From a virus (lineage: Duplodnaviria; Heunggongvirae; Uroviricota; Caudoviricetes): a stretch of DNA of 44,077 nt. The position numbers are program-made. Shown in pieces: positions 12,001 to 15,000 of the stretch (the first letter of the stretch is position 1; each line of letters opens with the position of its first letter). The stretch is from the IMG/VR virus record IMGVR_UViG_2537561936_000014, positions 1 to 44,077 of that record. One strand, written 5' to 3'.

Positions 12001-15000
12001 AAATTTTTAGTGAAAATGGCCTCTATGCTGTGCGCGTTGAGAATGGGAAAGTTGTCTACACAACGTTAATCCCTGGTGATCATGTAATTTTATCTATCGA
12101 GGCATTCATTGAATACCTTGAAAGGCTCGGTTTCAAGGTGGTTCGCGAATGAGTTATAATTCGTAAGCCAGCCTGAACAACTGGCAACCTACAGCGCCAT
12201 TGGAGACAGCAATGTCGCATATACAACTGGTCAAACAAACCTCTTCTGGATTACTTCTCCCGGCGACGCCGGAGAGTTGCGATTTTTTGCATCAAATCAA
12301 AATAGGTGAGTGGATACACGCGGACTTTAAGCGAGTGCGTAACTACGCGTTCCACAAGCGTTTTTTCAAACTCCTGCAACTGGGATTCGATTACTGGACT
12401 CCGGTCGGTGGGGCGATCACGCCTCGAGAACGAGAACTGGTGTCCGGTTTCGTTGAGTATCTGTGCGAATCAGTTGGTCGGGAACACACTCCAGCCCTGA
12501 GTGATGCCACAGAGCAATACCTTAATACAGTTGCGACATGCAGAACCCGGGATACGGCATTGCTAAAGTCGTTTGACGCTTTCCGCGAGTGGGTAACCAT
12601 TCAGGCCGGATTTTACACCGAGCATATTTATCCTGATGGTAGTCGTGGGCCCAGGGCAAAATCTATCGCATTTGCGAACATGGACGAAACCGAGTTTCAG
12701 CAGGTTTATAAATCTGTACTGAATGTGCTGTGGAACTGGATCCTGTTCCGTAAATTTTCCTCTCCGGAGGAAGTCGAAAATGTGGCCGCGCAGTTACTGG
12801 AGTTTGCGTAATGGTGGATTTACGTAAAGCGGCGCGGGGGCAGATGTGCACCGTCAGAATTCCTGGCTACTGCAATCACAATCCCGAAACTTCTGTGCTG
12901 GCGCATTACAGGCTGGCGGGGACGTGTGGAACAGCGACAAAACCACACGATATGCAGGGGGCAATTGCCTGTAGCTCATGCCACGATTTAATCGACGGGC
13001 GGGTAAAAACCAGCGATTACACCAAAGAAGAATTGCGCCTGATGCATGCAGAAGGTGTTTTTCGCACACAAGAAATCTGGAGAAAGGAAGGTTATTTATG
13101 ATTTACCCAACAAATACAGGAAAAAGCGGGGAACACCTTCGTCTCACCACGCTGGAAAGAGTCTGGATTCAGGGAAAACTGCGCATGTGGGGGCGCTGGT
13201 CGTATATTGGCGGCGGTAAGATGGGAAATATGTTCAACCAGTTGCTGACCTCTAAAAAGCTGACAAAAACGGCAATTAACGAGGCGCTCCGGAGGATGAA
13301 AAAAGCAGGTCTGGACAAACCTGAACTTGAGGCTTTTTTGCGGGATATGATCAACGGTAAGCAAAAAAGCTGGCTGGTGCATTGTAATGATGCAGAGGCG
13401 TTATGCATTGATCGTGTGATTAGTGAAGTACTGGCAGAACACCCAGGATTGATTTTTATCCTCCGACAAAGATATGAAGGGCGGGGGATGAGTAAGCTGA
13501 AAATGGCACAACAGTTAAATAAGTATCGCCCTGGCTGGAGCTTGAAAACTTGCAGAAATCGCATTGATGCATGGTTGGGTGTTGCTGAACACATTCTGTA
13601 TATACCAATGAAATTAGCGTTATGCGGAGAAAGCCAATAAAAAAGTTATTGCATTTTTGCCAATAAACTGCTTCAATTTTGCTACGCTTCGCAAAGCTGT
13701 ATCGCGAGGCGAATCAAGCGCATGAACTTTACCAGACCCCGCCATTGAGCGGGTTTTGTTGTTTCTATGGTGTGATATAAGAAACGACATTTAATAATTG
13801 CCTTCAAAATAAATTTGTTTATATATTGTTGTGTATGTTTTAAGTGAAAGTTAAATGTTTGCATAAAATAAAAACACATAAATAAATTTACATAACTTGA
13901 CGTAAAGTGTTGTTGCGATTGGAATATTAAATCGTATCATCGAAAACGGTTCTGAGGGGGGGGGAGGAACTCTTCTTTGCTCGGTGATATCGCTCCCCTG
14001 AAGAACCAATGCCGACTTAGCTCAGTAGGTAGAGCAACTGACTTGTAATCAGTAGGTCACCAGTTCGATTCCGGTAGTCGGCACCATATGCGGGTATCGT
14101 ATAATGGCTATTACCTCAGCCTTCCAAGCTGATGATGCGGGTTCGATTCCCGCTACCCGCTCCAGCATTTGAAACAAGCCTTATTGTATTGCGGCACTGG
14201 CGTATTTTTTATTACGTGGGGGCAGGTTGTTTTGAAAAAGCATTCTGTTCTCTGGCTATGATTTGAGGCCAGGTGTAGCCTCAGTGCTGATTTTTTTACG
14301 ACAGCAGAATGGTGCATTATCGGTGGAGATTTTGTATTTCCTGGCAGGGTAGGTGATGCATCATTCTGGTGTTGTAAATCGCACCAAAGAGGCGCACCTC
14401 AGTGCGAGGGTGGTTTAAAGAGTCGGTTTAGCGGGAAACCACAGTATCCATACAGCACGGAATACTTCGGGAGACACCCGACGCCTCGGTTTAATAACAA
14501 TTAAAAAAAATCATCCCTTGCATTGACCAACCGCCATATCTGGCGGTTTTTTTTATTCCTTTCTCAGGACGAAAAAAGACACGAGCATCCAGGAATACTC
14601 GTGGGACAACGTCCTTTGGATAGCAATTTGCGAGAGGGTGAAAAGTAGCGCGGTCGTCGGATTAAGACCGCGGGACAAAGTCCATGAAGAATAATAAGTA
14701 TTGGCCCCCTTCCGGGGACATGTTCATACTACCAAGATTCAGAAGTGGTTTAAATCCTCAAATTAACCTTAATTTCCGATAAGTCTTATTTCATTTCTTT
14801 GCGCCACATCTGGAGCTCATCAAATAACGCCACGCAAAGGGCGTCTGCGGATGCCGGTGCTTTTGACGGGGTGTTTTTTACGGGCCGCTGGTGGCCCTTT
14901 TTTTATTTACAGGAGAAAAAAGTATGTCTGAACCCTTATCCGGTTCCGGCACGGCTGCGGCGCTCGGCGGGGCGACGGTGTACGGGCTGTTTACCGGGAC

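Follow-up and report, generated by a model that had tools for sequence, protein, structure and literature searches.

A host-type tRNA-Thr(UGU)–tRNA-Gly(UCC) cassette of lambdoid prophages and its probable contribution to tRNA dosage

Introduction

Shiga toxin (Stx) phages such as 933W carry the tRNA genes ileZ, argN, and argO in the interval between the antiterminator gene Q and the lysis genes, and these tRNAs decode AUA and AGA, which are rare in the host. Here, we describe a tRNA-Thr(UGU) and tRNA-Gly(UCC) pair from a 44,077-nt stretch of Caudoviricetes virus DNA (IMG/VR record IMGVR_UViG_2537561936_000014, positions 1 to 44,077; this whole stretch is called the window below). The pair resembles the Stx-phage genes in occupying the Q-to-lysis tRNA slot, and in the Shiga toxin phage phi467, a Thr-Gly pair sits next to stxAB. 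It differs from them in the codons served and in its closeness to the host genes: argO is only ∼75% identical to host argU (PMC4539685), whereas the window pair is 100% and 97% identical to its host counterparts.

The same two genes have been described in prophages before. McDonald et al. (2015, BMC Evol Biol, PMC4539685) describe glyT-argO-thrU prophage clusters in Shigella and Escherichia coli, phage-flanked and present in multiple copies per genome; the phage-flanked clusters in Shigella were ascribed there to phage-mediated transfer, and the clusters were read as phage-supplied compensation for foreign codon usage. Shigella flexneri has three copies of exactly the fused cassette found in the window. 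Compared with these clusters, the window lacks the ileZ-like and argO-like genes and has a promoter and a leader hairpin. The fixed TAT spacer, the polymorphism at pair 6:67, and a relation to the thrU-tyrU-glyT-thrT operon are not mentioned in the available part of that report.

On the host side, the E. coli thrU-tyrU-glyT-thrT-tufB operon offers source-like sequences in the same order and on the same strand, with 2 + 1 + 2 matching flanking nucleotides. However, the window lacks the host promoter and its short leader, tyrU, the 116-nt spacer, thrT, and tufB, and the promoter of its tRNA unit, like the 60-nt structured leader that follows, has no counterpart there. A Thr UGU tRNA is also shared with the nuclease-resistant tRNAs of lytic phages (T5-like phages; tRNA-Thr(UGU) genes that rescue from P2 OLD, PMC12445682; anticodon-loop variants, PMC10264068). 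Those tRNAs withstand cleavage and have an anticodon arm unlike that of the host tRNA, whereas the window copies are host-identical there.

Because it is common, is annotated by the Prokaryotic Genome Annotation Pipeline (PGAP) as tRNA-Thr and tRNA-Gly, and was described in 2015, we regard the Thr-Gly prophage cassette as already known. Literature searches on tRNA-Thr/tRNA-Gly in lambdoid prophages and on the tRNAs of LT-II prophages returned nothing relevant.

The window carries a fused pair of host-type tRNA genes

The pair consists of the following elements.

14011-14086, plus strand: tRNA-Thr(UGU), found by ARAGORN and Rfam; identical to host thrU
14087-14089, plus strand: spacer TAT, common to 129/135 sampled cassette copies
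14090-14164, plus strand: tRNA-Gly(UCC), found by ARAGORN and Rfam; equal to glyT except for U6-A67 in place of C6-G67

Across the 44 kb, ARAGORN called exactly two tRNA genes, one as Thr(tgt) and the other as Gly(tcc), and each encodes its CCA end. The Rfam tRNA model RF00005, whose gathering score is 29 bits, scored tRNA-Thr at 73.8 bits (E = 1.9e-14) and tRNA-Gly at 65.6 bits (E = 3.6e-12). Both genes therefore exceed the RF00005 threshold and have an independent anticodon call, as canonical elongator tRNAs should, and we consider the identity of the two genes essentially certain.

The Thr gene matches K-12 thrU at 76/76 positions, and the identity extends to 79 nt when 2 nt upstream (AT) and 1 nt downstream (T) are counted. 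The Gly gene matches glyT at 73/75 positions, or 75/77 when the AT upstream is included. Its two differences from glyT, T14095 (position 6) and A14155 (position 67), are mutual pairing partners, so that C6-G67 of the host becomes U6-A67. These results bear out what the first-pass annotation had proposed from the sequence: the coordinates of the tRNAs and their 3-nt separation, the likeness to host thrU and glyT, and a compensatory acceptor-stem change in the Gly gene. Alignment to the host operon likewise confirmed that tyrU and thrT are missing, and sequence comparison across the whole window found no trace of tyrU, thrT, or the host spacers elsewhere.

The Thr gene belongs to the tRNA-Thr4 (thrU) type, and direct reading of the sequence shows the identity elements of threonyl-tRNA synthetase, which are G1-C72, C2-G71, G35, and U36. 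The Gly gene belongs to the tRNA-Gly2 (glyT) type. The identity elements of glycyl-tRNA synthetase (GlyRS) are U73, G1-C72, C2-G71, G3-C70, C35, and C36, and the changed 6:67 pair falls outside this set. Because the known GlyRS determinants do not include this pair, the U6-A67 substitution should leave charging unaffected. In each of the two window tRNAs, the anticodon arm is identical to that of the host.

The cassette is widespread in lambdoid prophages

We surveyed 5426 complete E. coli genomes with a 60-nt probe for the fused Thr-Gly junction, requiring at least 80% coverage. The junction was present in 865 genomes (∼16%), and the probe marked ∼1050 places beyond the host thrU locus, with a maximum of six places per genome when the host locus is counted. 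A pattern search for the fusion (Thr 3′ end, 0–30 nt, Gly 5′ end) in viral contigs and in species-representative genomes found at least 120 viral contigs with it; among the species representatives, prophage copies were found in E. coli (three) and S. flexneri (three) and also in E. ruysiae, C. braakii, and E. hormaechei. The entire 1.28-kb Q-to-holin interval occurs in 170 genomes at 95–97% identity, where the PGAP annotation consists of tRNA-Thr and tRNA-Gly only. The cassette is therefore widespread in lambdoid prophages and not private to one phage. The idea of a capture particular to this phage has to be given up, as the same TAT fusion recurs in all but six of the sampled copies, across many lambdoid prophages.

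Variation was counted over 135 sampled cassette copies, and flank alignments were made over 134 loci. The tRNAs align in 133–134 of the 134 loci and the flanks in only ∼23–70. The Thr gene is identical to thrU in 72/135 copies. At Gly pair 6:67, at least 72 copies have C6-G67, ∼55 have U6-A67, and two have U6·G67. Because at least 72/135 copies thus keep the host pair, U6-A67 cannot serve as a mark of capture. A second compensatory pair was seen in the T stem, where 48:64 changes from G-C to A-U. The Thr anticodon stem varies in 7/135 copies, in some of them at positions 42/43 or 30/31.

The Thr-Gly-only form, to which the window belongs, was found at 56 loci. A four-tRNA form was found at ∼60 loci and has the order CAU (ileZ-like), 1 nt, X (argO-like), 2 nt, Thr, 3 nt, Gly; L001:8845-8998 is one example of such an array. 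The anticodon loop of gene X reads UCU at 17 loci and "UUU" with C33 at more than 35, where PGAP gives no annotation, and AAA, UAA, and odd loops also occur.

Some copies of the Thr gene depart further from thrU. Anticodon-switched Thr paralogues were seen at L003:1122-1197 (copy 1 of the two cassette copies of phage SerU-LTIIb), at L084, at L128, and in E. coli 720632 (H89). In these, UGU is changed to UCU (called tRNA-Arg) or UUU (tRNA-Lys according to PGAP) within a thrU-like body that lacks A20. At L005:6266-6420, in E. hormaechei, the Thr gene is chimeric, its 5′ start being swapped for the 5′ acceptor strand of an ileZ-like tRNA; this looks like a deletion between common TTAGCTCAG boxes, and the acceptor stem is mismatched.

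The pair may derive from a single trimmed host operon

In K-12, the operon is laid out as thrU, 8 nt, tyrU, 116 nt, glyT, 6 nt, thrT, and tufB, and the gene order and orientation of the window pair are the same. The TAT spacer is readable as two host flanks joined, the T that follows thrU and the AT that precedes glyT; the two bases ahead of thrU, again AT, are matched as well. The match to the host flanks is limited to these 2 + 1 + 2 nt, with no longer flank homology, and five matching flank bases are weak evidence of origin.

No intermediate that keeps tyrU or thrT was found among the 135 copies, and no enterobacterial thrU directly beside glyT was found outside prophages in 185,579 species-representative genomes. 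Native thrU-glyT adjacency occurs in Photobacterium alone (Thr-8 nt-Gly); it was considered as a donor and rejected, its Thr gene differing at 11 positions. Given that native enterobacterial thrU-glyT adjacency was not found, deletion after capture appears to be a reasonable origin.

We judge host-to-phage transfer of thrU and glyT to be secure, because of the sequence identity and because the host operon is universal. An origin by trimming of the thrU-tyrU-glyT-thrT operon, as the first-pass annotation had suggested, is plausible but unproven. The genes are of host type, they share order and strand with the operon, TAT corresponds to host flank bases, and no native enterobacterial adjacency was found to account for the pair; on the other side, the five bases are weak and intermediates did not turn up. 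That the TAT spacer is fixed speaks for one ancient fusion event followed by spread. Because the TAT fusion is spread over many mosaic lambdoid prophages, it would have formed long ago and then been inherited or exchanged. We propose that thrU and glyT were captured once from the host, probably with loss of the 206 bp holding tyrU, and that the cassette then spread via recombination among mosaic phages. The U6-A67 pair would have arisen later, inside the phage lineage, through a U·G intermediate.

The tRNA unit has a predicted promoter, a structured leader, and terminator-like sites

The sequences on either side of the tRNAs hold these elements.

13913-13940, plus strand: predicted sigma-70-type promoter of the tRNA unit, TTGCGA-16 nt-TATCAT, from a promoter scan
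13948-14010, plus strand: 5′ leader hairpin of ∼60 nt abutting tRNA-Thr, from covariation and a covariance model
14165-14365, plus strand: conserved non-coding block after the tRNAs, which aligns at ∼70/134 loci
14263-14284 (to ∼14297), plus strand: terminator-like hairpin and T run, inside the 14165-14365 block
14529-14558, plus strand: intrinsic-terminator-like site, an 8-bp stem followed by T8
14882-14907, plus strand: intrinsic-terminator-like site just ahead of the holin start codon, conserved in L001

The promoter is kept in the form TTGMAN-16 nt-TATTAT across ∼40 distinct, diverged leaders of the two-tRNA form. The hexamers, the 16-nt spacing, and the distance of 7 ± 1 nt to the hairpin are conserved in these leaders, and the spacer sequence varies. 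The same promoter and hairpin were also seen at L012, L017, L029, L044, L070, L137:3455-3514, and other loci.

The leader hairpin starts ∼7 nt past the promoter and ends 3 nt ahead of the Thr gene. It has the arms GGTTCYGARGG and CCYGARGAACC and an internal loop of tandem G·A, and its interior varies. RNAalifold and pair counting gave 10 pairs, five of them with double changes, and 91.9% of cells are paired compared with at most 72.6% when the partners are slid. A covariance model of the hairpin returned 58 matches, all at the tRNA-leader position, plus two tRNA-less units; the matches include two sequences from outside the training set, those of phi467 and of the closest E. coli prophage. An Rfam search with the leader hairpin gave no match, even at E ≤ 10. 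We also considered whether the hairpin is a degenerate tRNA, namely an argO-like remnant of the four-tRNA arrays; the alignment was unconvincing, and ARAGORN and Rfam were negative. In the window, the 5′ arm of the hairpin contains a G9 run at 13956-13964, where all other loci have G5–G7, together with a 7-nt insertion relative to those loci; the run could be a slippage-prone tract.

The 14529-14558 stem recurs, with a different loop, at locus L001, which is the prophage of strain 504239 of E. coli. With its own promoter upstream and three terminator-like sites before the holin gene, the unit has, as predicted from sequence, the makeup of a moron.

Two units with the promoter and hairpin have no Thr-Gly pair (L016:2434-2497 and L095:7151-7212). 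In both (L016:2380-2640 and L095:7100-7360), the hairpin is joined via ACTGACT straight to the post-Gly block, and both lie ∼600 nt upstream of a filled copy. These tRNA-less units could represent either an empty insertion site or a deletion derivative; the Thr-Gly pair may have entered a small transcription unit that already existed, or it may have been lost from a duplicate.

The tRNA promoter is probably distinct from the late promoter

Upstream of the tRNA unit, the sequence directly after the Q-like gene contains candidate elements for the late promoter pR′ and its terminator tR′.

13649-13763, plus strand: Q-proximal block, with a putative pR′/tR′ assignment
13649-13677, plus strand: candidate late promoter TTGCAT-17 nt-TTCAAT, read from the sequence
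13738-13753, plus strand: terminator-like hairpin, followed by a T run to 13763

Together with the next ∼125 nt, the Q gene behaves as a single block of the mosaic, and this block assorts independently of the tRNA leader across loci. The hairpin-type tRNA unit was found behind DUF1133 genes (the family of the Q-like gene in the window), another Q family, a methylase gene, and, in phi467, stxAB; it occurs in at least three antiterminator contexts. In phi467 (L137:1766-3668), stxAB is directly followed by the hairpin-Thr-Gly unit, with the lysis genes further downstream, and because of this position the promoter of the unit is not pR′. A reading of the tRNA promoter as a Q-dependent pR′ is therefore disfavored by the independent assortment, the number of antiterminator contexts, and the position after stxAB. 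From these comparisons, we conclude that the predicted tRNA promoter acts autonomously and that the most probable place of pR′ is beside Q. The promoter scan found no other promoter-like site between 14165 and 14920, so any transcripts reaching the lysis genes must cross the tRNAs.

The late genes are enriched for GGA, and the pair probably raises tRNA dosage

The late genes of the window use GGA at 17.0–17.7 per 1000 codons (21% of Gly codons). The corresponding figures are 7.2 per 1000 (9.8%) for a 50-kb K-12 sample and, for the lambda late genes, 9.8 per 1000 (12.6%). Relative to the K-12 sample, this is an enrichment of ∼2.4-fold (odds ratio 2.5, p = 5e-11). ACA is used at 9.8–13.0 per 1000 (16.7–20.8% of Thr codons), the corresponding values being 9.5 per 1000 (16.7%) in the K-12 sample and 8.1 per 1000 (11.5%) in the lambda late genes. 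The comparison of both codons between late genes and host, which had been put forward as a check at first pass, was thus positive for GGA (p = 5e-11) and not clearly so for ACA (p = 0.07). These data support codon compensation for Gly and weakly for Thr.

Both thrU and glyT are single-copy in the host, with a median of one place per genome in the E. coli survey. The product of glyT, tRNA-Gly2 (UCC), is the sole GGA reader in E. coli. ThrU is described as the only UGU tRNA of E. coli in a study of P2 OLD (PMC12445682). The companion tRNAs of the four-gene arrays read AUA and AGA, and the arrays overall would therefore serve A-ending codons that are rare in E. coli. Signs of selection are also present: the tRNAs align nearly everywhere, their stem changes are compensatory, and the promoter hexamers and their spacing are kept. 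Considering these features together, we think that the cassette probably acts by adding dosage of two single-copy host tRNAs, the sole decoders of ACA and GGA.

Several points count against this role. ACA is hardly enriched (odds ratio 1.3, p = 0.07) over a host reference that consists of one 50-kb K-12 sample with heuristic open reading frame calls, and the ACA share equals that of the sample if the late genes are limited to 14924-33966. Lambda copes without these tRNAs. A host-identical copy adds dosage only, and its benefit is putative.

If the cassette does provide dosage, it could work as widespread host-derived tRNA cargo in its usual slot between a Q-type antiterminator and the lysis genes. 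The predicted sigma-70 promoter at 13913-13940 would start, at ∼13947, a transcript comprising the ∼60-nt leader hairpin, tRNA-Thr, UAU, and tRNA-Gly, from which RNase P and 3′ exonucleases would release the tRNAs. In the lysogen, the terminators at ∼14263-14297, 14529-14558, and 14882-14907 would stop this transcript ahead of the holin gene. After induction, Q-modified RNA polymerase coming from upstream would transcribe across the whole interval, and the late transcript, whose 5′ part contains the tRNAs, would then supply them in large amounts as well, just as the GGA-rich structural genes are translated. The lysogen would thus receive the added dosage constitutively, and late transcription would raise it further. 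Expression, processing, and charging of the tRNAs are predicted indirectly, from the conserved promoter and the compensatory stem changes.

The tRNA unit lies between a Q-like gene and the lysis genes

The neighboring genes, together with the integrase gene, are listed here.

13098-13640, plus strand: Q-like antiterminator gene (DUF1133, 180 amino acids; Pfam), the last early gene before the tRNAs
14921-15961, plus strand: lysis cassette, from Pfam matches
14921-15316, plus strand: holin (Phage_holin_8)
ending at 15581, plus strand: second holin (Phage_holin_3_7)
15578-15961, plus strand: M15 peptidase/endolysin
572-1690, minus strand: integrase gene

The protein encoded at 13098-13640 matches Pfam DUF1133 with E = 3.3e-99. 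Its match to Phage_antitermQ is weak (27.1 bits, with a cutoff of 26), and so is its match to the phage 21 Q structures PDB 6JNX and 6P18 (E = 0.003), which is nevertheless specific. The gene is preceded by DUF1367 and YbcO genes, its start overlapping the stop of the YbcO-family gene, and PGAP names its orthologs only "DUF1133 family protein." Position and remote homology point to a Q-type antiterminator that is distantly Q21-like. The tRNAs had been placed between Q and the lysis genes at first pass; the location stands, with the amendment that the "Q" is a DUF1133 protein and only remotely Q21-like. This Q-to-lysis cargo slot on the late strand is occupied in the window and likewise in phage JLK-2012, whose order is Q, tRNAs, lysis genes; in the Shiga toxin phage phi467, whose order is Q, stxAB, tRNAs, lysis genes; and in strain 504239.

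Between 14165 and 14920, we found only open reading frames of at most 54 amino acids, and the PGAP annotation of this interval is empty in nearly all of the 170 homologous E. coli loci. An integration-site (attP) tRNA fragment was ruled out as an explanation of the pair: the genes are full length, 12 kb from the integrase gene, and in the late-gene leader. Other Rfam matches above threshold in the window were the sok antitoxin RNA of a hok/sok module (11374-11548, plus strand; 117.7 bits), the DicF small RNA (4986-5036, minus strand; 69.6 bits), and sRNA-Xcc1 in the tail-gene region (35136-35219, minus strand; 78 bits).

Discussion

We weighed the dosage role against other explanations of the same cassette. 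The pair could be a neutral passenger or recombination linker, providing short, harmless homology patches for the exchange of early and late modules and no translational benefit. This would accommodate a Thr copy that is redundant with the host gene, an ACA usage that is not clearly enriched, and the mosaic joints at both edges of the pair, where a constant core of 154 nt is surrounded by Q, leader, and downstream blocks that each assort on their own. We consider it rather unlikely, however, because a passenger would not readily explain why the sequence is near-invariant amid very diverged flanks and its stem changes are compensatory, why a dedicated promoter is conserved, why 16% of E. coli genomes keep the cassette, many of them in more than one prophage, or why GGA is significantly enriched. 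The pair might alternatively belong to an RNA-processing or insulating leader element, in which RNase P cuts set the 5′ end of the lysis mRNA and its stability, or to a counterpart of the lambda pR′-6S RNA-tR′ arrangement. It always lies on the late strand between an antiterminator gene and the lysis genes, and two to three terminators follow it. In addition, the tRNA-less promoter-hairpin-terminator units at L016:2434-2497 and L095:7151-7212 exist, and therefore the unit could stand alone as a small RNA. Against this, the phi467 unit follows stxAB and so is not pR′, the hairpin-type unit is found in three or more antiterminator contexts, and a mere processing signal would not need exact conservation of full tRNAs and of synthetase identity elements. 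We regard such a leader function as very improbable.

A role in defense was considered as well, in which the pair is an anti-defense reserve that refills tRNA pools destroyed by nucleases of the host or of rival prophages. P2 OLD, the classic factor that excludes lambda, is the best example. As described in the study cited above, OLD has tRNA-ThrU as its main target, phage tRNA-Thr(UGU) genes rescue, and the cleaved tRNAs have paired CNG motifs in the anticodon stem and A37 in common (PMC12445682). Both window tRNAs read C28-N-G30, C40-N-G42, and A37 (arms at 14038-14053 and 14116-14132), and a few family members are changed at Thr anticodon-stem positions 42/43 or 30/31. However, according to the same study, overexpressing host ThrU protected little or not at all, and the rescuing phage tRNAs are cleavage-resistant; the available part of its text does not name tRNA-Gly among the OLD substrates (PMC12445682). 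The window Thr gene equals the sensitive host ThrU, the Gly anticodon arm equals that of glyT, and the Thr anticodon stem differs in only 7/135 copies. The window tRNAs thus have neither the anticodon loop nor the anticodon stem changes relative to the host that would characterize a nuclease-resistant anti-defense tRNA, and because both anticodon arms are host-identical, we hold an anti-nuclease role to be unlikely. A related proposal, that the Thr-Gly unit is a regulated small-RNA unit whose cargo buffers against P2-OLD-type nucleases, with the leader hairpin timing the release of the tRNAs, strikes us as a long shot.

We therefore favor extra dosage of the two host tRNAs as the probable role of the cassette. 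For phage biology in general, this changes little, as extra prophage copies of thrU and glyT are routinely annotated and were discussed in 2015 as codon compensation. Our analysis adds detail to that picture. The cassette appears to be one ancient fusion that is now in ∼16% of E. coli genomes, and not the result of repeated captures; its Gly gene seems to offer a natural example of the textbook compensatory path from C-G through U·G to U-A; and it travels with a conserved predicted promoter and a structured leader that matches no Rfam family. Closer study might be worthwhile for this hairpin, for the Thr paralogues with switched anticodons, and for the argO-like gene with its variable anticodon loop. 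If the leader or the link to tRNA defense is functional, this common cassette would be a natural system for studying how temperate phages handle host tRNA pools.

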